Assembly (NCBI RefSeq): GCF_026571515.1
Contig: NW_026857281.1
Span: 1-64,000 of the forward strand
Direction of reading: 5' to 3'
Length of the DNA: 64,000 nt
Origin: Ruditapes philippinarum
Taxonomy: Eukaryota
The notes beneath the pieces were generated by a model. The model was not told where the DNA came from. It searched no databases and worked only from the letters and a program-made list of their open reading frames with translations. Each line of letters begins with the position of its first letter. Position 1 is the first letter of the stretch. Positions 3,028-58,888 of this stretch are shown one piece after another. The translations under genes were made by a program, and so were the position numbers.

Positions 3028-6000
3028 GCAGGCAACATATCATAAGTGTGATATAACATTATTCATGAAAAAATACTGGAACCATCTAACTAGAAAATGC
3101 CAAAAGTTAAAACTTACAATACCACGAACAACAATAATGTCGTTTAATAAAATCTTTAAGAATCGGAATATATAACATCCCTAATTGAATGTACGAGGAT
3201 TGGAAAGGAAACAAATTATAATCTTATTGAGACTACATTTTCTAATCAGAAATGACATGCAATTTGCTTGAGCATTAAGACTGGTACTGTGTTCTTACAT
3301 TGATAATGGCATGTTTCAGTTATACTAATAAGAAACTCGACAAATATGGCCGTTAAGTGAGGCCATTTACGCATACATTAATGCGCAATTTTTTTAAAAT
3401 CCAATTAGAAATAACATTACTTTTGTCTGGCGACGAACATCAGTGGAACTTTATTTACGGTGATTGGGCGTTTGCCACAACTTTTCCGCGCAACGTCAAA
3501 ATATTATCCTTCTGACCGAGACACCTTATATTTCTGTACAAAATATTAATGGCGGGATAACCAAATTGCAGGTAATAGCTTGCAAATTATCTTTCTGCTG
3601 GACATTGCAAAATTATTCCAACTGTTTAAGTATTCCATCGAATTTTTTAAACAATTTATCCTTAATCTAGCACAACAAAATTCACAAAAAATGCATACTT
3701 CGAAGAAATAGTTTTTAAAAAAGATCGTGTCTCCCTAAACATGTCTCGTACTTGTCACAAAAACATGTGTTATAACGACGATGTATTTGTTCTTTGACCT
3801 AATGAGCTCGTATATATATTACGGTTAAGCATAAATTCAAGATCCATACAAAATTGTGTGTTTCTATTGTAAGTTTTAGGGAATATATGTTGAAAAAAGG
3901 ATTATTGACCAGCATATTGGAGCACCGTACAACACTGATCTCAAATGCCGCATTCTTGTTCCGTTAGACCGATAAATACTGGCACCATTTTCTTTTGCAC
4001 AGTACTTTATAAGTTACTGTAGAATTATATAGATCTTCTTACAAATATGTTTTATTTGATGGAATACTGTTTACTTGCTGTTATGTTGATGTTATCACAG
4101 TCATGTTATTTTATGGAACAACTTCAGAAGGTCTGATCTATGTAAATACTACCAGTTAGATAAGTGCAATGGTATCTATATGGATAAGTAAGTCTTTTCT
4201 TTTTCGAATTTATTCAGGCATGGAAGGATCATTCTTCAACCGAGGTTACCAAGCATTGAGTTGTGTAAAGTGTTTCCTTCAATAATCATTTCCCAACTGA
4301 TTCAGATGATTCATCGATTAACTCAATCTGGCCAATACTTCCGTCAGACGACACTAATACATTTACACATACATTAACATTTTCACAACTGACATATGCA
4401 ACAATTTATTAACTAAATGCTAGCTGTCTAAAATATCAGATTAGATTGTACCTAATGTACTCGATATACTTTCATCCCTTACGAACATGAAAAGATCTTT
4501 TGGGTAGGGGCAAATTTGTTGGCTAGGTAGGTAATGGGAAAGAAATGAAATTTTATTTTAGGCCCTATGTGGTACATTTAGCATATCGTCCTGAACTGCA
4601 GGGAGGATCTGATCAATTGGCGTACTGCTGATACAAGAAGGCTTAGTTGGGCGCTCCCTAGTTGGCACACTCATACTCCAACATGCTTCAACATGCTTCA
4701 GTAACTCCTGAAAGTAAATGTAGTTTTGCCAATTTCGCACATTGCTTTGGTTTGTTCAGATATAGGTTTGAACGTCTCCTTTTTTCTGAAAGCAAACAAA
4801 AATTTTGTCAAATGTCAAAAATAAACGGTGCTAAAAATACAGAAAATGCGGTGATTTTAAGGACGAATAAAGCGGTGTCCTAATCTTATAATTGTCAAAG
4901 TTGTGCGGTGTATTAAAATATACACATGGAAACATAAAAATCATGCCAAATATACAAAAACGGGTAATTTAGGTGGTGTAACTTGTTCAAACGACAATAG
5001 TGTACATATTTATATTGTATCTTGACCGGTTATATAGACTGAACGGACGAGAAAGACGTTATATTTATAATTAAAGCAATATCTTTTTCAGCATGCCCTA
5101 AATGTTTTCACTATCCTGACTTAGTTACACTATCCTGACTTAGTTAGTGAAGTATTTTGCATGTAGTAAAGATAAATAAGTTTCAGATTGAATGGCACAT
5201 TCGATGAAAAAGAAGAAATGATGATTTTACCTTGTTTTGAGCAAACAATCTTCTGTTTTTGTCTCGTTTACAGGCTTGCTGTCCATTTTGTGTGACAGAA
5301 AAACACGGTGTCTGGGACAGAAGTAAGATATTTTTGACGTTGCGCGGAAAAGTTGTGGTAAACGCCCTATCACCGTGTTATTAAACTTTTGATTTAAAAG
5401 TGTGATCTTGACTCTTGAACTAGAAACCCGATTGTTGCGCACGACACATTACCACTATGTTCAAAGCATTTATGCATAACATGTTTTTACATCTATCTGT
5501 CAATTAACACACATGTATTGTTAATACAAAAAGACTAAATGTTCCGAAATAGAATATCATGCTACTATTCTACGAATGAATTTTAACCGTTTGGCACTGA
5601 TTCCGTGCATGTGCTATTCACTCTTAAAGGAGTATACACAAATATTTTTTATACACCTTGTAATAAGGGACCTTAGAATAATTAATTTTCATGATTCAAA
5701 GAAACATGTTATACACTATACACTATTATAGAAGAAATATAACTTCCTACACTTTAAATAGTATAAACTAGAAAAATATTTCTTTGTCACGATAAATTAT
5801 CTCTTTATTCAGAATACCTTCACTTAATTATATGATACATATGTCTCCCAGTTGCTGAAAATGAGATGAATAAAATAAACAATAAGTTCCTCAAAATAAA
5901 AGAAAATTTCTTTAAATGAAATAAATCAATAAATACGGACAATTATGTTTACATAAAATCGTAATCTTACTATCGTTAAGTACGAGATAATTTTCACTTA

Positions 6001-8686: not shown

Positions 8687-10289
8687 CTGAAAGTTTGAAA
8701 AGCTGTGTCAGCATGATAGGAAGTAAAAAAATTATTTTCATTTTCTCCGTTCTTCGAAACGTATTTTCTGATCACATAGCAGCATTGCATGCTCAAGTTA
8801 TCCTTCTATCCGGAGCTTGTGAGAACAAAGTAAAGAATAACATTCAAATCTATTTTTAATTCAATTGTAATAAAATGCTTAAGCAACATATGTCTAGACA
8901 CATTTGCATTATGAAACTGTCTTTTTTGAAACTGAATTTTAAAATGATGTGCACAATTCGAAGTTAAATCTGTATTTTCTTTGCTCTCTTGTTATAAGTT
9001 AATCTTGAAACAATATCTATCAGAAGATATAGTAACATTGCATGTTCAAGTAGTGCTTCAATTCGAAGCTTTTGAGAACAGAGTAAAGAATCATAAATTG
9101 TTTGTTTGAATCTATTTTATACTTTCAATTGTGTATATATGCCATTATAGTAACATATGCCTTTATATATTGGCAAAATGAAAACTGTTTCACAAAATCT
9201 TTTTAAACTTTGCATTATTACCATTTTAATTTTTAAACAATTTGTGGACGGGAAGATCATTTACAAATTAAATTTGCAAGGGCTTTTAAGATTTCTAAAT
9301 TAAAACAATTTTAACATATCGCAAAATGTCATGGAACAACAGGATGACTAAAATGAAATAATCTTACCTTTGACAGTTTCTGAATTACTTTATTTGATGA
9401 TTTATTCATGGCTACGAATCCAGGATCAGTCAAAATATCATTTAGAATGACAAAATACTGTGAGAGATCTGTATCTTCTACTTCAAGATTAGGAGAATGT
9501 CTGACAGCTTTACCAACATCTCTACCCTTAATTGAAATATGACAACTAATGTAAAGACAGCGAATAACCAGTTCCTTGTTTTATTTCTACGTTTTTAAAT
9601 ATGTACTTACATTGGAAATTAAATCAAATTGTTTTTGCATGTTAAGCAGCGATTATTTGATATTGCAAATACTTGTAAAACAATTGTAAATTATCGTTTA
9701 AAGATAAAAGTATTACCTTTTCAAATATGTTCCCCTTTTTAGACAGGTCATCCTTTATTTTCACTTCAAATTCTTTGTGATTGATTATGACACTGATGAT
9801 GCCATTAAAATCAGTTTCGGCTGCACTCGATACATTGGCGTAACCATCAGGAGGGAGAAAACACTTTGCGATTTCCCAAGTATCATTGCACCACTTGGTT
9901 GCGTCCGTGTTTTTATATGATGGGCCTTGGAAACGATGTGCATTTTGAATCTCAGATTTCATACGATCGCAAATTTTGTTGGGGCAGCCGGATGGACGAT
10001 ACTGTGTCGCAAAATTTCTATGGTATTTACATTTCCCACGTTTGGCATTGCAAATTCTGTCGGTAGGGCAAACAATAACATTTTCTGTGTTACAAGTTGT
10101 ACATATGCTCCCAACTGGTAAGCCATTTGTTGTGCAAATGTCTTGTAGACACCTACGCTGGAACTGTTCTATTTCATCTTGAACAACAGGCTCAATCTCT
10201 TCTTTTGTAAAATGCACAGCCAATGCCGCCTTTATCCAATTAAGAAATTTCGATTTTGATAATTTGTGATCCGTAAGTACTGAAGCCAT
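8270..10289 (-). CDS. CXorf38-like (DUF4559, HEPN-like fold) protein with C-terminal coiled coil; 3 coding exons 10289-9717, 9526-9368, 8686-8270; about 382 aa
   Basis: Exon 1 has family-typical motifs (NWIKAALAVHFTKE, CPNKIC, KNTDATKWCNDTWEIAKCFLPPDGY, ETDFNGIISVIIN). Donors AAG|GTAATA (9716) and AAG|GTAAGA (9367), acceptors TAAG| and TTTCAG|; all phase 0, exon lengths 573+159+417 nt, no internal stop. Exon 2 = GRDVGKAVRHSPNLEVEDTDLSQYFVILNDILTDP... Confidence 0.8.
8776..9200 (+). repeat. Diverged tandem duplication (period about 254 bp) in intron 2 of the CXorf38-like gene
   Basis: cattgcatg.tcaagt...gct..tgagaaca.agtaaagaat near 8780 and 9035. Confidence 0.75.
9368..9526 (-). CDS. CXorf38-like gene, coding exon 2 (53 codons; not in ORF track)
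   Basis: AG/GT-bounded 159-nt open frame containing the AVRHS motif. Confidence 0.85.
9717..10289 (-). CDS. CXorf38-like gene, coding exon 1 (191 codons)
   Basis: ORF 9642..10289 up to donor GTAATA after NIFEK. Confidence 0.85.
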
Positions 10290-10477
10290 TTTAATTTGTT
10301 ATTAGGAGAAAACTTCCATCCCAATTTCTAAAATAAAAACCTGTGTATGCTAATTACCTTATTCTGTGTAACTATCGATCATATTCATTTCTAATTTAAG
10401 ATTATAAGTTTATGTACTAAGAGAACTTTTCCTGGCAAACAGTTTTAAAAATTGTGGGACTAATAAAAGCTTATAAA

Positions 10478-20555: not shown

Positions 20556-20796
20556 TGATTACTCAATAATCACATCCTTTGATGGATATGGGTTGAGGGA
20601 CTTCTCAAGACGATTACCTTATCAATTTACTGACTGGGAGGGTAACTAGTATTACCCTGGTACCCTGGGGCACCCTGCTTTGCAGAGAGGAATAATGCTT
20701 GCATTTAACGTTGTCATTGAGGTGCTTTGGTTGATTCCAGGGCCCCATTCGCAGCTCGGTGGTTTTTTAGTTTAGATATAGTTTGTTTTTATTTTT

Positions 20797-22185
20797 GTAC
20801 AAAATATTAAATCATGTATTTCTGTAAACGATATTTCATCTCCATTTTTTAAAAGTAACTGTGGGGTACGCCAAGGGGAAAATTTGTCACCAGCGTTATT
20901 CTCTATTTATCTTAACGACCTAGAATCGCATCTTGGTTTAACCAATGATGGCATTATAATTGAACGACAAAATGTTCAAGCTGACCTTTACCTTAAACTA
21001 TTTGTGTTACTATATGCGGATGATACTATAATTGTAAGTGATAGTCCTGAATCATTACAAAAATTATTGAACGACTTTTACGAATATTGCTCTAAATGGA
21101 AACTTACAATAAATAAAAGTAAAACTAAAATAATAATATTTGGATCGAATAAACCCGGCAATTTGCGCTTCCTTCTTAACAACAAACCAATTGAAATAAT
21201 AAAGGAATATAAATACTTAGGAGTAGTTTTCTCATCTTCTGGAAGTTTTCTTAATGCTAGAAAATATTGAGTAAATCAAGCAAATAAAGAAATGCATATA
21301 CTTTATTCAAAAATATTTAATCTTGATATCCCAATTGATTTACAGTTGAAATTATTTGACCAAACTATTGTTCCTATACTTACTTTTAACTGCGAAGTTT
21401 GGGGATTTGAAAATCTAGATTTAATTGAAACGGTACAAAATAACTTCCTAAGAACTATTACTAAAAGCAAAAAAAGTACACCATTATATATGCTATACGG
21501 AGAGCTTGGTCGCTATCCAATGGACATAGTCATAAAATCGAGGATGGTAAATTATTGGTGTAAATTAGTTATGGGTAACAGAAATAAAATTTCTAAAGTA
21601 TGTTATGATATAATGCTAAATTCTGACACAAGTTTTAAATGGTCAGAGTGTATAAAACAAATTTTAAATAATACAGGTAACACATACATATGGGAAAACC
21701 AAATGAATATCAATCTTAAAAATTTCAGTATGACAATAAAACGTACATTAATTGACCAATTCTTGCAAAACTGGAATAGTTCACTTACAGGTTCTTCTAA
21801 AGGTCTGACATACCAATCATTCAAATCCGATAATAATTTCGAACAGTACCTCATTGCATTGCCTAATTATCTTAGAATGACCTTTTTTCACTTAAGAACA
21901 GGTAACCACAGGCTCCCTATAGAAACAGGCAGGTGGAGGCAGTCTTTTGTCCCACATGCTGAACGAAAGTGCCAACACTGTCAACTAAACGATTTGGGAG
22001 ACGAGTTTCATTATATTCTCAAATGTCCTTTTTTCCTAGCCTCTAGGAAACGTTATATAAAACCGTACTTTTTTAATAGGCCCAATATACTTAAATTTTC
22101 ACAACTTATGTCTTCTAAGTCTACCAAGGAACTTAAAAATATCGCCCTTTTCTCAAGAGAAATAATGACTACATTTAAAAGATAG
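20797..22185 (+). mobile_element. 5'-truncated LINE ORF2 (RT plus C-terminal CCHC region), RTE-X-like; one in-frame stop at 21268-21270
   Basis: GVRQGENLSPALF, LLYADD, YKYLG, RTGNHRLPIETGRW, CQHC...DEFHYILKC; ORFs 20884 and 21292 are in the same frame. Confidence 0.9.
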
Positions 22186-40700: not shown

Positions 40701-43700
40701 TATCTTCTTATATTCTTTCTATATTATCATCAAGTAATTCAGCAATGTCATACCGAATCTCCCTATATTGTCTGGTTCAAGAATTTATCTGGTTTCCAAT
40801 CTAAAATTACTACATGTATTTGCCTGCTTCCCAGTTGTACATTAATATATTTGTATGGTTCCCTGGCGGATGTTTTACTGATAAAACAGTGAGTGGAAAG
40901 GTATTCACAAATGCAAAATCGTAGGTAATGCGATTTTTTCTGGTCGTATTGAGATATTATACAGGTAGTAGACACAGTCAAAGAAATTCTGAATCACTTG
41001 AAAACCCTTATGTCCAGAAAATGGCACATTCGCCTTTTTTACTACACGTGAATATATTTTTGTCGTTGCAGAAAATTTATCAAATCTGCAAAGGATACGA
41101 CATCAAAAATAGCCATGTCGACTGATAAACAGAGAGAAGAAACAGAACTGCACAAGCTTCTGGCTGACTTAGAACAACAGTGGACAGACAACAAGACAGT
41201 GGATATAGCTAAAATCCTAACGAAGCAACTCTCTAGCTCGGATAATCCATTTGCTCTGGTTGTGTTTATATTAGACAATGCAAAGCAAACGCAAACTTTG
41301 AAAAACAAAACGTTATCATTATTTGCGCTGACAACCTTTGAACAATGGGTCAATGAACATAAAAATGGGATCGATTTTACTCAACTCCTAAGTAAAGATG
41401 TTCAATTGCAAATATTTACAATTTGCACAAGGCATCATACGAAACTATATGATTCTGCTATCAAGTGCTTCCAGCTCTCTCAAGTGAACAATGAGTTTTA
41501 CCTTCAAATTATTCGACAGTTCCTAGAAGATCATAAATTCCAAGAAGCAGCCTGTTGGACAAATAAACTTGGACTGCAACATTACTTCGATATTACAGAA
41601 ATCGTGCTACCACTGCTTGTAAATTGTGAAACGCTAGCTTTAGAAAATTATGTCCGTGGAATACCAGAGCTTCAAGAGAAACTTGTCCTGTATTTGGATC
41701 ATCTTTGCGATAAAAAGACGGACCTTGTTTCACTTAAGCAATATATACTAATAGATGGCGTCACAAAGAAGGATAAATTTGGGATAGGGTATCTTAAGAA
41801 GCTAGCTATCAAACTTCTCAAGTTATACGATATACCGCAAGGTAAATATTCTTTTTATGTTGGTAGGATAAATCATTTTTATGATAAATTAAGATATAAA
41901 ATTGCAGAAGATTCATTTGACGCTTTTAAGATAGATATTGGGGTTTTTTTTGACATGAGATTAACGTTGAGTGATTCAATGTATCATCTTAACGCTGTGA
42001 CATTCATAGCAGTTATAGCCATAGCTTCTGTAAAATTATGAGTTTTACACTTAACGTAAAATTTGTAATATTTGTAATTGTAATATTTTTAATTCCCTAA
42101 AAAGACGTTTGACGGGAAGTTTGACCGTTTATCTAAGAATTTTTCGAATTGTCAATTTATTTGTTGAATTCTCTCATATATAGGAGAATCTAAATTTATC
42201 ATTCATCTCTGTCGGTTGGTTGATGTTGGTTGATTTTCAATTTCATTTTGATCTCTGGTAGAAAATTATCCATTTCTTGTTCACCTATATTGTTAAGTGG
42301 GATAAACAATTTCTTCCTGGTCTCTTTTGTACTCTTGGTGGAAACTCAAATTCTTGTTGAACTAGGTGAATGGTTAAGGTGTATTTTCTCGTTGATCTCT
42401 TTTGTATGTTAGGAAATTATCAATTTCTTGTTGACCTCCGTCATACATTTTGGAATTATCAATTTATTATTGACCTCTGTCATGCGTCGAGGAATGAACA
42501 ATTTATTATTAAGCTCTATTACATGTTTGGGGATTGTCAATTTCTTTTTTATCCGTGCCGTATGAATGGGAATAAATGTACCTTGTTGTTTAGTTGCACA
42601 CTCAGCATAATTTAAAGAATTTTTGGGATGTTATTTGGTCCAGTGAGTATACCATTACTTGCTGTGCGGTTGTCTGGGTCTACTTTTACTTCACGACTGC
42701 ATCATATTTATTACTATTTCTCTTCTTTTCAGAAAAATGTCCAAATATTGCTAATGCAATAGCTGACGGAGATATAAGATATGTAGTTATTTCTAGATTT
42801 GTCGAGGTAAGAAACCTTTTGTAATTTCTAGAAAATGTTACTGTTTGCCAGTGTGAAAATACACCATTTTAAAAGTTTGTTAAAGGTAAAACTCAGTGGA
42901 CAGTTAGCATTTTGATTTCCGTAATAAAATTATTGTACAAAGCACTCTGTAATACAAGCGTGGGTAAATTTAGTCATACTATTAATATATAAGGTCTCGC
43001 TTTTTTGCAATAAGCAGAATGCGCTTGCCTTGCACGAAATGCTATTTCCGTTTCTTATTTCGTATTATAAAATGATCTATATCATTAAGAGGCTGTTTAA
43101 AAAAGAAGTAGAAATGTTGGTATTTTTATTATTTTTTCGTCGGGCACAGTTTTAGAAAGTTATATATGCTAGATAAAATGTACATTCCTTATCTATGCTA
43201 AAATAATAGAATATCCATTTTTTCTTATAAGGTGCCTTCTACATTTTTTAATTTGAGTAGTTGTTCAGATTTATTTCAGATACATTTCCATTCAAGCAAC
43301 ATAAATGCGGTACAAATCAGATAGCGACTTTTTAACTTTATGACTGATAAAAGAATATTTAAATTTGTTTTTCATGAACCCTAATAAGAACTTATTCCGA
43401 ATACTTGAAATGTATCCAGCAATTATGTGAAAATACGAAAAAAGACTTGTATTGATTTAAATGCACAACTTTCGGGGTGATATAAAAAACCGAAATCCTT
43501 AAACATAGTACCTATTGCATGGTGTTATAGAAATATTGTAAGAATATTTTTAAAAATCAGAATGACATTGGCCATGACTGCAAAATGTAAAATAGTTTAA
43601 ATGTTTTTAAATCAGAAGGACATTGGCGATGTACTGCGGGAAGAGACGGTGCGTATGATTGTAGGAACAAATGCCTATAGGAAGAAACAATTGATTCTTC

Positions 43701-50809: not shown

Positions 50810-52073
50810 ACAATAACGACATACGCTGTGTGTTTTCAAATATACTAAGACTCGAACCATTTTTATTAACTAGATAGTCTAACATAGTTGTCTATATTTA
50901 TCATATAGAATTATAGGCTAGATCCTTGTCTTCAAAACAAAGTTTATCATCGTCGTCCTCTTTCACAAACCTAACACCGCAGTCGCCGACCTGAACCTTC
51001 TTGCAGTCTTTTGGTAAACCAACTAATCGGGCTAGTCGCCATCCAAACCTACGATGATAAGATAAAGTAAAATATGTTAAAAAGCAATGCGGATAAAGTT
51101 TCATCCCTTGGAAACATGAACCACAAAAATATATGAAAATTTCAGAGTCGACTTTTTTTATTCTGTGCAACAGGAATAATGAGAAACATACCTCACGCCC
51201 CCTAGCAGCGGTTTGAGCGATACTCAATTATAAACACTTGTGTTGGGATCAATGATCCCGAAATAGACCATTTCAGGGACACTGTACACATAAATATCAT
51301 TGAGCAAACATTGACTTTCCTTGCTCCACTGAGAGGTTGGTATAATTCGGTGGCCACGATGTAGAGTAATAATCGGCCATATGCGGCATGAATATCTGCC
51401 CTAGGAGATAGGTAGATGAACAGTATAGCAGCCTAATGGCCTAATAACCTAACTGCATTATACACTATAAAGTACATTTTTTAAAAACTTTTATTCTTCA
51501 AAAACTTACTCGCAGACCGACATTCCGGATTCAAAGCACGTGATATTCAAGCACGTGGACGTTTGTATGTTAGAGCCAACTTTGACCTTGAATCCAGGGA
51601 ACTCCGGATGAACGCAGGAATTCTCGTCATCTGATAATAGAATAAAACAATGATCAATAAATAAAACAAATAAATTTGAAAATGAGTATGTTTTGAAAAT
51701 AAATCATTTTTAACGTAATAATAACAAACAATCCCACCGTTTAAAACGAGGGATATATTAATTTTATTTAGATATTCATAACTACATTTTTTCAGATGAA
51801 AATGGGTGGTTGTATTTCTGCTTATTTAATTGTTGAGATGATCCCTATGTCGTGACTAAGATAATAAAGGGCTTTATCTAAAAATAAAAAAAGAACTTAT
51901 AGACATATTCCGACATAATGTAAGGATAGAGTCAACAACTAGTCTAAAACTAATATGTAAGTGAGTCCCTTTTAACAGGATTTGCTAGGCCAACACATTA
52001 TGACTTGATAAATCTATGAGCAATCCCTTCTTGTAAAATTCGAAGAAGCAAAATAAAAGATATAGATCAAAAT

Positions 52074-52710
52074 ACGAGCGTTCTCTTACAATGATCATTT
52101 TATTGCGCACCTCTACGTATTTTGTATTAAGGAGCGTTCTCTAACGATGATCAATTTATAACGTGCCCCTACGAATTTATTTAAGTTTATCAAATTACGA
52201 GCGTTCTCTAAAAATAATCATCTACGTATTTATTTTAGTTTGTTAAATTACAAGCGTTCTCTAAGAATGATCATTTTATAACGTGCATCTACGTATTTAT
52301 TTTAGTTTATTAAATTACGAGAGCTCCCTAACAATGATCATTTTATTCAACACCTCTACGAACTTATTTTAGTTTGTTTAATCACGATGATCATTTTATA
52401 AAGTGCCTCTACGAACTTTAATCTTATTTTTGTTTGTTAAATTACTAGCGTTCTCTAACAATGATCATTTTATTGAACACCTCTACGTCTTTATTTTAGT
52501 TTGTTAAATAACAAGCATTCTCTTTATACAGTGATCATTTTATAACGCGCCTCTACGTATTATTTTAGTTAGTTAAATTACGAGCGTTCTCTAACGATGA
52601 CTATTTTATTCCGCAGCTCTACGTACTTGTTTTAGTTTAGTTACGAGCGTTCTTTAACTGTGATCATTTTATTACACACCTCTACAAATCGATCTTAGTT
52701 TGTTAACTAT
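52074..52710 (+). repeat. Minisatellite, about 10 copies of a 60-69 bp unit
   Basis: acgagcgttctctaacaatgatcattttata...ctctacgtatttattttagtttgttaaatt repeated head to tail. Confidence 0.92.
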
Positions 52711-53324
52711 TAATATGAATCAGGTAAAGCCTCAAATCTTGCTCTTTGGCAGAAATTATAGTACATTATAATTAAAACCCATCGGCGGCTACACATTTTA
52801 TGTGTTTAATACATTTAGAGCTTGCTATGAATGAGCCGCCTTTACTATCATTATAGAGCCGCGCAAACCTGAACGTCTGTACAGTATAGCCACGTGACTA
52901 ACTTCTAATTTTCATTTCTATTTTTTCGAGATTGATATTTGAAATTTCCAAAAAGAAATTATCAAGGAGAAGACATTTTAGATATCCATCAGTTTAATTG
53001 GTTAAGTGTGTAAATAAGATAAAAATAACTGCTGACTTACCACCTTCTTGTCTCGTGGAATAATGACATCCTGATTCCACTACAGTAACAACAATACAAA
53101 ATAATAACACAAGTTGTGTAGTTTTCATTTTGTTTTATTATCCACGGTGATAAATTGATAATATTACTGTTTTGTTGTGTTGCTCAATTTATATACATGT
53201 GTTTGTCCGATTAATGTCACATATGGGATTGTGTCTCGCAAATTTTTGACATCTGCTAACACTCTGTGCACAGATGGACGACCTGAGTGAGTTCACGAGT
53301 CGAGCGTGATTAATAGCGCAGTAA

Positions 53325-53796
53325 GGGACACGGCCTACTGAATTTTCGACCCATATATCCTATAGTAAATCCATCACATTTAAGGCTAAATTCTGGACAA
53401 AACAAATCCGGTACCGAAACTTCATGACCATTTCTTTAAACACCAATGCAGTCCAAGTAAATTTAGCACAAAAAAATAATACATTAGCCCTTGGAGTTTT
53501 TCTGCAGCTTTTAATTTCTGTAATCACTATAGAATATTCCAAATAGTAACTGGTGTGTATTCTTGTGCATAGTGCCTCATGAAACCTTCCACCCAGAAAT
53601 GAAATCCTGCAAAAATACATAAAAAACAACCTTTAAAGTACTCAGAAATGAAACTTCATGTACATAATTACTAAATATATACTTAAAATATAACCAGTAT
53701 CAATTAAGATGATATGAAATAGGCCATTTCAAAATTTAAAAGAACTACTTTCTAGACTACAACGGGCTGGGTCTAATTCCGTACCGGGGTGACACC
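53325..53796 (+). repeat. Left long terminal direct repeat (472 bp)
   Basis: gggacacggcctactgaattttcg...gtaccggggtgacacc, repeated at 56725. Confidence 0.95.
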
Positions 53797-54485
53797 TAAA
53801 TGAACATAAAATTTCATTTAAAAGAACATTTACACACATTTTTTGGTAATTTTATGTTGAACAAGTAATATTAATCAAGAAATCAATGTCTCTTACATTT
53901 CACATTGATACAGGAGCATTTCTTAAAGGGTGACCACTTTGCGGAAAATCAGGCTCGGCCAACAGAATTTTAGATAAAAAAATGGCATTACAAATTATAA
54001 CATATCTTCAGAAATAGAAGACAGATTTTCATGAAATAAAGTTTTTTGTTGTTGGCCAATATTGTACAGGTTTACTATGCATGAATTATACCTTGTTTGT
54101 ATAAAATGGTAAAATTTATCCATTTTTTCTTAAAAAAAAGCTTAAAATTTAAGTTTGAAATAGTGAAAAATGGGCATAAAGTTTGCCATTATAATGATTT
54201 TTTCCCTAAAAATTGCTATAAAACTTCCCGATTAAGACTTTTACTTAAATTTATCAGTAAACAAAGCAAAGTATATACATACACAGACTACACTCATTGT
54301 TAATACCATCTAGAAACATCTCTATTACCCTAGTACTATATATGGCCTTTTGTAAGTAAATTCTTACTCAGATAAGGCCTTTAAAATTGTTATAGAACAA
54401 GGCAATCAATTCAAATAATTGAATAGGAAGTATTAAATCAATTTACTCTTCAAGCCCATCATACTCTTAAAAATATCATTTTACA

Positions 54486-55580
54486 ATGGAGAAGAGACGC
54501 CTTAATAGTGGAACTTTCAAGAAAGGACACAAGATTTTACCTCCTCACTTGAACGCTGCCGAACAAACCAAACAGTAGTTCTTGCATACATCTCAGCCAA
54601 ATCAGGTATGAACTTCCTCAAAACCAGTGCTTTGCTCACAGAAAAGTCTGCAAAATAAAAGATAACAGTGAACCGCAAGGGAATAAAGTGATCAATTTAG
54701 ATTTAAAAGCAAATTGCTATGATGAACAAAGTTTATGAAGAGCACAGTGCTCAAAAATGTGATAAATTAAACATCAACTTACACTGTGAACAAAAACTTG
54801 GACTGGGTTCAAATTGGAGCCCAACAATGTTTGAAGGAAAAACCCTATCTGGCAGTGCAAGACAAGCTATTAGAGCTTTTGCTAAGGATATTAAGGCTAG
54901 ATGCAGTGCTATTATAGAAAACTTGGCTTAAAAAAAATGGTCTCGAAGGAAATTTACATACCTTAGGCTTACTGACAATCCGTATAGCTACATTAGAGTG
55001 TTATGCTGGTAGCTGTAAGTTCTGTCCAGAGGAATCCCTAGTTTGTTCCGGTGTAGGAAATGTTGGTGATTGGTGGTATAACTCTTCCTATCTACCCACA
55101 CATGGTATTCATCCTAGAATTGACAAGAAATGACCGTGAGCTATAATCCGCTATTCTGAAAATACGCCTAAGTGAGTACGCCATCAAAAGTGTGACAAGC
55201 AACACTTGAAGTGCAAAAGTTTTAACAGATCTGTGTTATCCACCCTGCCTAAAGAAATCAACTTTTCGAGGAATTTTGCGGGCAGCTTAGCTTCAAAAAC
55301 TCTGCAAATTAACAATTCATTTCAAGTTTCTGCTGAGAAAAAATGTCCGAAGTATAACAGGACACTCCCTATCACCAAGAACACTTCGATACCTAAAATC
55401 AGCATCAAAACAGACTTCAAAGGCCTTAGCATTACCAAAAAACAAGACAATTTAAGATGAAAAGAAAAGAAACACGGGCAAAACTAGAACACATGTACCA
55501 CCTTGCGAGAAGTGAAGGCCAGTACAATGACGAGTACCACAAAGGACAACTTGATGCAGCAGGCCCTTCAAAGTAGGGCT
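54486..55580 (+). pseudogene. Frameshifted, probably internally deleted Kolobok-type DDE transposase
   Basis: Fragments MEKRRLNSGTFKKGH, EPQGNKVINL, NKVYEEH..C...EQKLGLGSNW, MFEGKT..FAKDIKARC, LECYAGSCKFC..SLVCSG, CKSFNRSVLSTLPKEINFSRNFAG. Confidence 0.7.
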
Positions 55581-56724
55581 ACCAGGAATTGATGTGGCTG
55601 TGCATTGTTATTTCAACTGAGTTATGGTGAAAATAAGCCCCGTCACATTCATGGCAGAATGTCTGATGATGACCTGATTGCCGGTCGAAACGGGAGAGCA
55701 TATTTTTGCCATTTGTAAACATGACAACTGCGAAGAAAAATAAAAATACCCTCCCAACAATCATGTGAAAACAACAACAACAACAACATCATCATCACTG
55801 TTGTAACAGACTATAGACAAGTGCAATTTCTTATTTGCCATTTGCACTCCCCAACAGGATAATGTTATATCTATAGGCCTATGTATTACACTTATACACA
55901 ACATGCATAATGAAATAAAATTCAAAGCTGCATATACATATACAAATTTACAATATCCTTGACTGTCAAATACATATCGTGTCAATTCAGTTCTATTTAT
56001 CTATTTCAAATATGATTATCAAATGAAACTAGTCTATAACAGCTTTAATAATGACAATATAGCACTGTTTCTATATCTGCCAGCAGATGAATGACAATGA
56101 CCACAGTTATTTCTACTTTATGTTCTATATATACTGACCCGAAATGAAATTGCACTTTCGAGAAGTTTGAAACAAACACCATTTTCACTTAATTTTGTTG
56201 ACAATCAAAAACTTCACCCTAAATGAAAAAAATGATGTGCGCATGAAAATATGCCTGTCAAGTTTTGGCTGCAAACAGGCAGTAAACTTTCGTCAATAAT
56301 GTTTCATTTTGCTTTCTATAACATATGAAATTATTTCAAATTTCAATCTGTCAATAATTTTAATCCCTTTTTTAAATTATGACTTTTTTTGCAAAGTCTT
56401 TCATTCAATACTTCATAAATATTTAGCATCAAACATAGGCACTTACTTCTTGTGTAACCACTTCCGTATTGTGGTCAACGAAATGCATGCAAATGGAGTG
56501 AAGCAAATGGTGTCTTATGGCAAGGGGAGACAACATCAATAGAAAGTGGCAGATTTTTAAATTGTCAAAATTTAATTTTTAAATAAAATTTGAAATATAC
56601 AAAACCTGACTGTTATTCCTTTAAAAAATTCAGATTGCTATCCACAGCATTACCAGTAGGTGAAGTTTTCATCACTTTTATTCCAAGTAGTTCCTTAGAA
56701 ATCCATTTTAACCTGTTACATTTA

Positions 56725-57203
56725 GGACACGGCCTACTGAATTTTCGACCCATATATCCTATAGTAATCCATCACATTTAAGGCTAAATTCTGGACAAAA
56801 CAAATCCGGTACCGAAACTTCATGACCATTTCTTTAAACACCAAATGCAGTCCAAGTTAAATTTAGCACAAAAAAATAATACATTACCCTTTGACTTGGA
56901 GTTTTTTCTGCAGCTTTTAATTTCTGTAATCACTATAGAATATTCAAATAGTAAACTGGTGTGTATTCTTGTGCATAGTGCCTCATGAAACCTTCCACCC
57001 AGAAATAAATCCTGCAAAAATACATAAAAAACAACCCTTTAAAGTACTCAGAAATGAAACTTCATGTAACATAATTACTAAATATATACTTAAAATATAA
57101 CCAGTATCAATTAAGATGATATGAAATAGGCCATTTCAAAATTTAAAAGAACTACTTTCTAGACTACAACGGGCTGGGTCTAATTCCGTACCGGGGTGAC
57201 ACC
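56725..57203 (+). repeat. Right long terminal direct repeat (479 bp)
   Basis: Same sequence as 53325-53796 apart from small indels. Confidence 0.95.
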
Positions 57204-57828
57204 TAAGGGCAGCACCGGACAATTTCCGTTTATCTCATCCAAGCGATTTTACTAGGCCAATTATGCGATTTTGCGTTCATTGAACGCCGCCTTTCCTTGT
57301 TGATCTTGTTTATCATATTTTACCTTTATCTAGTTATTTTTATACATTTAACTTACATTACTTGATTTTTGTAACTTGTAAGTGAAATGTGGATAATTTT
57401 ATCCCGATGCAAATTCTACAGAATATTAGTCAAAGAGATAAATGTTGAATCACATGGAACGAACATTTACCTCAGGTAGTTTTGTCCCTACAACCGCCAA
57501 TCGCGCCGTCTTCTTAGTTGAAACATATTTGTTGCATATTAAATATAATTAGACTATATTATATAAACATTTTAACAATCATATTAATCAAAAATACACG
57601 CAATGGATTTTGACGGAAGCACTGGTTGATTATTAAAGTCAATCTGAATAATTGTAAAGTTACAATAAAGATGATACATGGCTGGTAGATGTACATGTAA
57701 CGAGCTTTAAAAACAATATAAAAGAGTGTACCACTACCGCCTCTATTGATTGTATATTAAAAAAGTTTGGAAAAAAACGCAAATCTAAGTCTTGGGGTAA
57801 GTGACTTAAAACAATAGTGAATAAAATA

Positions 57829-58055
57829 TGAGCCGCGTCACGACAAAATCAACGTAATGCGTTTGCGACCAGCATGGATCCAGACCAGCCTGCGCATCCG
57901 CGCAATCTGATGCTGTCCGCTTACCAACCCTATAACAAGTAGTGAAACTGATAGCGAACAGCATGGATCCTGATCAGACTGCGCGGATGCGGAGGCTGGT
58001 CTGGATCCATGCTGGTCGCAAACCCATTATGTTGGTTTTGTCATGACGCGACTCA
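57829..58055. mobile_element. Palindromic MITE (hairpin arms of about 80 bp)
   Basis: tgagccgcgtca.gacaaaa...tttgcgaccagcatggatccagaccagcct / aggctggtctggatccatgctggtcgcaaa...ttttgtcatgacgcgactca. Confidence 0.9.
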
Positions 58056-58888
58056 AATATTATCTTAGTGCCAGTCGAGGTCGTCTATCACCCTTATTCA
58101 TCATCTGTTAGAAAATCGGCAGTTGCCAGTTTATGCACAGTAAACAAAATTTTGCCAGTGTTATAACAATAACACTAGGTGCTGAAATTCTTCGGACGAT
58201 CTCCTTTGCCTATCTAGACTTCGATTACTCCTGGTATAGATTTAATGTGCACTTCTTTTTCAGGCACGTCATTTAAGGTCAGACTATTATCCCATATACT
58301 TACATTATAATAAATGACCTTAAACCTGCCTCAAAATTTAGTATTCCTGCTAAAGATGTGATTTTTTTCTAGGAGAATGACATGCCTGACATATTAAAAT
58401 GATCTTGTTACAAATAGGTTGACCACTAAATTTTCCCAAAGATGAACCAAATTTTCAATGAAATTTCTGCTCATCACAGACCAGGCATATACATGTACAT
58501 GTACCTTTTTTAAAATTGGGATAAGCTTTTGTTTATATTCTAAAGAAAACGTCTCATATGGGATGTGACGGGAAAAGAAAGACTGCATTTATTTTAATAG
58601 CCTTAGCTTGTCCAGCCTTTTGTTCTCATAGGGGACAGGACTTAATTAAATTTGGTCTGTGGGTATACTTAAGGGCCTTTAAGTGTCCAATCTATTATCA
58701 TCCTCTAGCTTCTTAAAAAATTTTGAGTAAACTTTATAATAATACAGTCATGTTATTTTGTGTTGGAGATGTTTTTATCTAAAGAGTATATTAGTAATTC
58801 CACTGTAAAGCAGGTGATAAACTGGGCTGACATCATGTTACAATATATTTAAACAATAAGCTACTTATCTTAACACCAAAATGAAGTC

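Follow-up and report, generated by a model that had tools for sequence, protein, structure and literature searches.

Closest Described Systems

KolobokP transposons, described by Kojima and Bao in 2022 (PMC9587614), consist of an internal region (INT) between a pair of long terminal direct repeats (LTDRs), and in the supplement of that paper KolobokP-3_MeMe is the listed family nearest, by eye, to the element considered here, which occupies positions 53326–57203 (3,878 bp) of an AT-rich, 64,000-nucleotide stretch of Ruditapes philippinarum DNA (contig NW_026857281.1, positions 1 to 64,000, forward strand; this whole stretch is called the window). The element carries a type III hammerhead motif just past the relic of its transposase gene, and a comparison of related loci gives good support to a conserved and covarying fold. 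With KolobokP-3_MeMe it shares the LTDR-INT-LTDR structure, an LTDR of the ~470-bp class, 5'-RR...YY-3' termini, a 4-bp target-site duplication (TSD) and the first four bases of the interior, and the LTDR end, the interior start and the transposase are homologous by eye; the same hammerhead is present, unannotated, in the published consensus. The window element differs in the 5' half of its LTDR (diverged, by eye), in the deletion of the catalytic core of its transposase, in the lack of a nuclease, in an LTDR relic of a second lineage within its interior and in a weaker terminal inverted repeat. Non-autonomous KolobokP families, KolobokP-4N1_CorFlu or KolobokP-3N1_DrPo for example, as entered in Table S1 of PMC9587614, are likewise multi-copy derivatives (1.5–3.8 kb) with the LTDRs of an autonomous partner, an excess of LTDRs over interiors and INT-INT joints; the window element stands at the long end of their size range, has about 60% of the transposase left in frame, and carries a ribozyme motif.

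Type III hammerheads (RF00008) are found in plant retrozymes, viroids and hepatitis delta virus (HDV)-like circular RNAs, according to the accessible part of PMC7761336, and the window copy resembles them in its core, its GUC triplet, its open stem III and its closed stems I and II, for which loop-loop pairing is predicted here. It differs in being single, in lying in the 3' untranslated region (UTR) of a gene of an animal class II transposon, and in one extra U. For a cut-and-paste DNA transposon no report of a self-cleaving ribozyme was found, such ribozymes being known from elements with an RNA intermediate. R2 retroelements, for instance, carry HDV-like ribozymes whose cut defines the RNA that is copied. 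Penelope/Terminon elements also carry a self-cleaving hammerhead RNA; as set out in the accessible part of PMC6431247, they move through RNA and the cut defines the copied RNA, whereas KolobokP is thought to move as DNA. A word search of the whole main text of PMC9587614 returned neither 'hammerhead' nor 'ribozyme', a 2026 review (PMC13565253) discusses KolobokP without any RNA motif in its accessible part, and a literature search that had Repbase Reports and most subscription papers outside its coverage found no report of ribozymes or a histone stem-loop with Kolobok or with the transposase of a DNA transposon. The KolobokP hammerhead is apparently unreported before, and the earlier note on this DNA mentioned neither it nor the second-lineage LTDR.

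The Hammerhead Motif and Its Conservation

55639..55694, + strand: type III hammerhead motif, the sole descriptor match in the 64 kb, with covariation

The predicted cut lies after C55644 of the GUC triplet (55642–55644), 68 nt past the transposase stop, and the core is found at 55663–55669 (CUGANGA) and 55687–55690 (GAAA). Three helices of 6, 4 and 4 bp are present, with stem III open, and loops I and II are complementary over a predicted 4 bp. One extra U, after the core and before stem II, is common to the window, locus L001 and KolobokP-3_MeMe; such insertions are tolerated. The non-coding stretch past the stop is almost identical in KolobokP-3_MeMe, and in the comparison with L001, 50 of 57 positions are identical inside the motif and 91 of 189 outside it. 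The hammerhead fold ties for the lowest energy in the window stretch, and the motif is predicted to cleave its own transcript.

Scanning metagenome contigs with 35 aligned transposases yielded 56 related loci. Over their 201,818 bases the hammerhead descriptor gave 13 matches, none of them off the transposase strand: 11 lie 15–123 nt past the stop, and the other two belong to permuted contigs, L006 (where the motif is displaced by an inserted repeat) and L007; five shuffles gave none. A covariance model added L010 (its own eight sequences match by construction). In a MAFFT alignment of eight homologues, which was not fitted to the structure, 95.8% of the cells were paired and 13 of the 15 hammerhead pairs were changed on both sides, compared with 31–40% and 0–3 pairs in a slid-alignment control; the eight had been picked as descriptor matches, which favours pairing, and relatedness inflates the shuffle test. 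The pairing between loops I and II was kept in 31 of 32 cells, with one of its four pairs compensatory and two invariant. Locus L005 matched Rfam Hammerhead_3 (RF00008) with an E value of 5e-05 (29.8 bits), and at the gathering score no hammerhead match was obtained in 20 loci searched with Rfam. The transposases of the hammerhead-bearing loci match P0001, a 571-residue PF20700 protein of the public data that was found by searching with one piece of the window relic, at only 39–64%. At about 2585–2665 of L014, right after the stop, stand two tandem 39-nt units that by eye resemble a minimal hammerhead with an altered first core base.

Other RNA Devices at the Same Position

Among the 56 loci, 14 end short of the transposase end and 8 have less than 250 nt downstream, leaving 34 that were scored: 10 with the hammerhead, 4 with an HDV-like fold, 1 with a histone stem-loop and 19 with none detected, L006 with its displaced hammerhead being counted among these 19. 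The HDV-like folds lie 96–142 nt past the stop (L011, L019, L020 and L054) and the Rfam HDV model gave E values of 0.013 and 0.086 on such loci, while the histone stem-loop lies 35–49 nt past the stop in L021, where the Rfam gathering score is reached, and in L022, one of the eight loci with a short downstream part; three others of these eight (L002, L003 and L007) carry the hammerhead. Clustering at 80% protein identity left 10 hammerhead, 4 HDV and 1 stem-loop clusters. In a quick IQ-TREE tree of 47 rows, from which loci with less than 220 profile positions were excluded, the devices follow transposase clades, the hammerheads falling in two, the HDV folds in one that is weakly supported and the stem-loop in one; since kin carry the same label, this pattern shows inheritance, not independent origins beyond those of the three unrelated folds. 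The published consensus file (supplement of PMC9587614) holds all three devices, as hammerhead cores, an HDV-like stretch and two stem-loops, one of them 20 nt past the stop in the KolobokP-3_MoPh consensus; these counts come from exact-word searches and are lower bounds. The occurrence of three unrelated devices at a single position speaks for selection acting on the ending of the transposase message, and they provide a natural test of interchangeability between ribozymes and histone-type processing.

In intact elements the predicted cut falls within a gap of 140–530 nt between the convergent genes for the transposase and the His-Me nuclease, and the device sits between the two genes in 6 of the 15 loci where both could be placed. 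An Rfam search for a fourth device in the 19 device-less loci, and in short stretches of L025 and L031, found none, and the twister-like appearance of L031 received no support. As a separate observation, L025 (2622–2667) and L033 (3290–3334), which belong to two distant device-less families, share a two-hairpin motif (83% identical, about 150–200 nt past the transposase stop) that has no Rfam match and may be a fourth 3' device. In L038 a perfect histone-type stem-loop stands on the minus strand at 3372, 1.6 kb past the transposase stop and with no long open reading frame (ORF) directly upstream.

Proposed Role and Alternative Explanations

Each of the three kinds of device cuts RNA in such a way that the upstream piece has no poly(A) tail, the sole property that they have in common, and by analogy with the known chemistry of the three families the motifs found here presumably cut RNA as well. 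This common cut, together with the position between convergent genes, leads to the account that is slightly favoured here, namely 3'-end formation that would stop the sense transcript short of the antisense nuclease gene and the right repeat. The hammerhead would cut the transposase transcript 68 nt past the stop and leave an end without a poly(A) tail; with the cut made ahead of the convergent nuclease gene, less overlap and less double-stranded RNA would arise, and the three devices would be interchangeable in that each would define the transposase message's 3' end. Within the family that bears the deletion the ribozyme has probably been inherited and may still end a truncated transcript, and the element would be moved in trans by the P0001-like transposase of an intact relative, following the model of Kojima and Bao as given in PMC9587614.

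Several observations weigh against 3'-end formation of this kind or against the motifs on which it is built. None of the 24 listed sequencing runs is on record as RNA. An untailed message translates poorly, which is awkward for a plain terminator role of both ribozymes. The hammerhead is kept in L004, a unit-length contig without a nuclease, and in the window element, so shielding of the nuclease gene is not the whole story; moreover, 19 of the 34 scored loci have no device, several of them with an apparently whole nuclease ORF (L023, L024, L025, L026 and L040), which means that the device is not required. Poly(A) hexamers occur downstream in the window at 55739 and 55914, and such hexamers do not sort device-bearing from device-less loci. 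The window copy was not scored as a hammerhead by Rfam, searched with the element and with a 151-nt stretch, free folding does not set its stretch apart from shuffles (z −0.24), and L005 falls short of the Rfam gathering score (29.8 vs 48.5 bits). The HDV descriptor was written after examples had been seen and has a background of 1.2 matches per shuffle.

It is also conceivable, though rather unlikely, that the devices serve self-attenuation or timing, keeping the transposase low or brief regardless of the antisense gene: the ribozyme cut would destabilise the message, and with the histone stem-loop expression would be coupled to S phase. This is compatible with 3'-end formation and differs from it in the selective cause. 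The retention of the hammerhead in the nuclease-less L004 and window family speaks for it. A hammerhead in the 3' UTR of mammalian genes has a repressive effect. As a precedent, the mammalian 3'-UTR hammerhead is described in PMC7761336, and replication-coupled action belongs to the published KolobokP model (PMC9587614), each as given in the accessible part. The histone stem-loop, in the textbook view, stabilises the message and promotes its translation, the opposite of a destabilising cut, so a single dose-lowering purpose cannot cover all three devices. A use of the ribozyme to make the 5' end of a downstream RNA, either unit-length RNAs from (LTDR-INT)n arrays as in retrozymes or an antisense RNA against the nuclease, is improbable, and unit-length release would give KolobokP an RNA route to its multimers. 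After either ribozyme cut it is the downstream piece that retains most of the fold (textbook knowledge), type III hammerheads process plant retrozymes (PMC7761336, in part), and multimers are common in KolobokP (PMC9587614, in part), with an INT-INT joint seen in run X1; against this, the histone stem-loops found at that position set nothing but an upstream 3' end, the element has no reverse transcriptase and one motif per unit, and INT-INT joints with few bases lost fit DNA excision.

That the motifs are passengers, brought in by unrelated repeats and without a role for the transposon, is more improbable still and is already largely refuted by the covariation, as judged from aligned sequences. 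Hammerheads are common in animal repeats and 19 of the 34 loci lack any device, as passengers might; the animal repeat hammerheads are, however, mostly of type I (both points from the accessible part of PMC7761336) and those of KolobokP are of type III, their strand and position are fixed, compensatory changes run across transposases matching P0001 at the levels given above, and local conservation is strong (50/57 vs 91/189). Finally, the long direct repeats, and the many indels of the window copy that most reads lack, might suggest a remnant of a long terminal repeat (LTR) retrotransposon or an assembly duplication, which can scarcely be right: the ends are GG...CC and not TG...CA, the transposase is a DDE enzyme of the Kolobok type, no gag/pol-like ORF is present, the TSD is of 4 bp, and both inner borders are found in contigs of other samples.

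Beyond the favoured 3'-end formation, a broader proposal is advanced tentatively, with doubt slightly outweighing confidence: KolobokP would have repeatedly recruited unrelated RNA-cutting devices to one site past its transposase gene, this would be a first case of a class II transposon with self-cleaving ribozymes as part of its make-up, transposase messages would be poly(A)-independent, the histone-type version would couple transposition to S phase, and the ribozymes would possibly release unit-length RNAs from tandem arrays. The 56-nt RNA offers a cheap experimental handle on the proposed KolobokP model, with its convergent transposase and homing-nuclease genes, its multimers and its replication-coupled spread.

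Element Structure and Transposase Relic

53322..53325, unstranded: left target-site duplication TAAG, identical to 57204–57207
53326..53796, + strand: left LTDR, 471 bp, GG...CC, weak terminal inverted repeat (repeat alignment)
53797..56724, + strand: internal region (INT), 2,928 bp, multi-copy (alignment and read depth)
54486..55576, + strand: KolobokP DDE transposase relic, frameshifted in the assembly, residues 108–362 of P0001 missing (tblastn of P0001)
54806..54813, + strand: in-frame deletion junction, about 255 codons (tblastn and read contigs crossing it)
56099..56482, + strand: LTDR relic from another KolobokP lineage (type KolobokP-2_MeMe/1_SiCo), degenerate termini (motifs, alignment by eye and depth)
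56725..57203, + strand: right LTDR, 479 bp (repeat alignment)
57204..57207, unstranded: right target-site duplication TAAG, identical to the left copy

The earlier note had placed an element with direct repeats of about 475 bp, GG...CC ends, weak inverted termini and about 2.9 kb of enclosed sequence at 53325–57203, flanked by TAA. Its repeats, interior length and right end agree with the present alignment; the start is moved to 53326, since the extra G belongs to the TSD, and the flanking TAA is part of the 4-bp duplication TAAG, which is inside the 3–5 bp range of KolobokP. The two LTDRs form the top off-diagonal self-match of the entire window (96.9% over 485 columns) and, aligned over 482 columns, differ by 1 substitution and 10 indel events. 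Both start with GG and end with CC, giving 5'-RR...YY-3' termini, and their terminal inverted repeat matches at about 6 of 16 positions without gaps and better with two gaps, as read off the alignment. In the published data, KolobokP LTDRs are near 450 or 660 bp, with a range in Table S1 that takes in 470–480, and their terminal inverted repeats are typically of 11–18 bp, with families of 1–7 bp also in Table S1 (PMC9587614, in part). The last ~190 bp of the left LTDR resemble the KolobokP-3_MeMe LTDR by eye. At 53328–53330 the LTDR 5' end reads ACA, compared with TGT in the related published LTDR and at the opposite end of the element itself, an inversion-like change of 3 bp that is present in both LTDR copies and weakens the left inverted repeat.

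The insertion is probably recent. The LTDR differences are nearly all indels, and the window copy has many indels that are missing from most reads and from all high-depth contigs, while a contig of the flank matches without difference; unpolished long-read errors within the repeat, combined with a young insertion, are inferred. On short-read data the repeat is not an assembly duplication, a possibility that the earlier note had raised: both borders of LTDR and interior are spanned by contigs from runs X8 and X15, and in X1 a contig runs through the left border between flank and LTDR without difference (X1 may be the source sample). Among the listed short-read contigs none spans the whole element and none is shown over the right outer border. 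One X8 contig (record 16) follows the left flank at 52775–53332 (87% alike) and continues with 159 letters unlike the LTDR; it is possibly an allele without the insertion.

The DDE-transposase relic proposed in the earlier note is present. Its best-aligned C-terminal piece is 93% identical to P0001 over the aligned part, and it jumps in frame from P0001 residue 107 to residue 363, a deletion that takes out the two catalytic aspartates along with the CCHC finger and the DxxH signature. P0001 keeps D218, C263/C278/H281/C284, D320, D347–H350 and E500; the relic reads K at the position of the final catalytic E. Pfam gave nothing significant and no retroelement family for 10 ORF pieces of the interior and relic, and the interior holds no gag/pol-like ORF, in line with the absence of retroviral genes noted earlier. 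Hits P0002, P0007, P0010 and P0025 of the transposase search look like repeat-protein noise (P0002 was checked). The transposase and His-Me nuclease had been given as the structure of the class, and only the former is found in this copy: a profile of nuclease ORFs from related loci, together with tblastn, found none in 53001–57500, the same profile finding 22 of the 56 related loci, with L002 and L005 as relatives that carry the His-Me nuclease (PF05551). A minus-strand stretch near 55810 that by eye resembled a nuclease motif was not supported.

An autonomous element has an intact DDD/E transposase as well as a nuclease downstream on the opposite strand, and the window element has neither. 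The assignment to KolobokP holds, on the likeness to KolobokP-3_MeMe described above and on the Kolobok residues of P0001, as does the suggestion of a new non-autonomous family, the catalytic-core deletion being carried by high-depth contigs and therefore family-wide; such a family is ordinary on its own, the class being already published. The reading frame is kept across the deletion, and two or more of the frameshifts are undone by reads (among the best 12 of 71 indel rows); the family may still code for a catalytically dead transposase that has both of its ends. An analogy for a trans-acting repressor transposase is the KP derivative of P elements, and a dead transposase of this kind may act likewise.

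In the place taken in relatives by the His-Me nuclease gene, the interior holds the captured LTDR of a second lineage. Of five motifs taken from it, supplement file 3 of PMC9587614 (1.06 million characters) contains three, only in the LTDR of KolobokP-2_MeMe or 1_SiCo, and both ends of the captured LTDR align by eye with the published LTDR; the other two motifs were not found in that file by exact matching, which is limited across line ends, and no homologue was present among the 56 related loci. An independent solo insertion is ruled out by the flat read depth across 56099–56482, which indicates that the captured LTDR travels with the family as a fixed part of the interior.

Copy Number and Interior Rearrangements

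Four of the 24 listed sequencing runs were mapped (X1, X8, X15 and X19), and the values below come from the best-supported rows of each table. In X19 the raw-read depth was 33–57 over the interior (bins 54017–56731), 1.4–2.9 over the single-copy flank and 182–425 over the left LTDR, where reads fitting both repeats were mostly placed; the ratio of LTDR to interior depth is greater than two LTDRs per unit would explain. Contig depths, which are not copy numbers, were about 220–295 for the interior vs 3 for the flank in X1 and about 220–380 vs 10 in X8. The deletion junction is crossed by an X1 contig (record 5, depth 265) and an X15 contig (record 12, depth 43), and in X8 the contigs are interrupted at this point, which would be expected with deleted and undeleted forms side by side.

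An X1 contig of depth 265 joins 56724 to 53798 with no LTDR between and one base lost. This INT-INT joint was seen in X1 only and is absent from the listings of X19, X8 and X15, which suggests that X1, in that sample only, holds an LTDR-less tandem array or circle; LTDR-(INT)n-LTDR patterns and common multimers are described for KolobokP in PMC9587614 (in part). X1 also has the highest interior-to-flank and the lowest LTDR-to-interior depth ratio of the runs mapped. In X15 the contig depth is 88 over 54808–55665, the 3' part of the transposase and the ribozyme, vs about 40 elsewhere, a doubling that implies another element there sharing only that stretch.

Neighbouring Features in the Window

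Right of the element lie a short, very high-copy repeat piece (57271–57322, depth about 4,200) and a hairpin miniature inverted-repeat transposable element (57821–58063) with 91-nt arms and a raw depth of about 13,000 vs about 2, a similar copy of which interrupts L006; to the left lies a degenerate satellite with units of ~53–67 bp (52069–52706). Farther away are a DUF4559 exon (9642–10298, − strand), a reverse-transcriptase remnant of a long interspersed nuclear element (20782–22185, + strand) and a frame of 329 codons without a Pfam match (41052–42041, + strand), which presumably recalls, as a candidate, the N-terminus of EXD3/mut-7.

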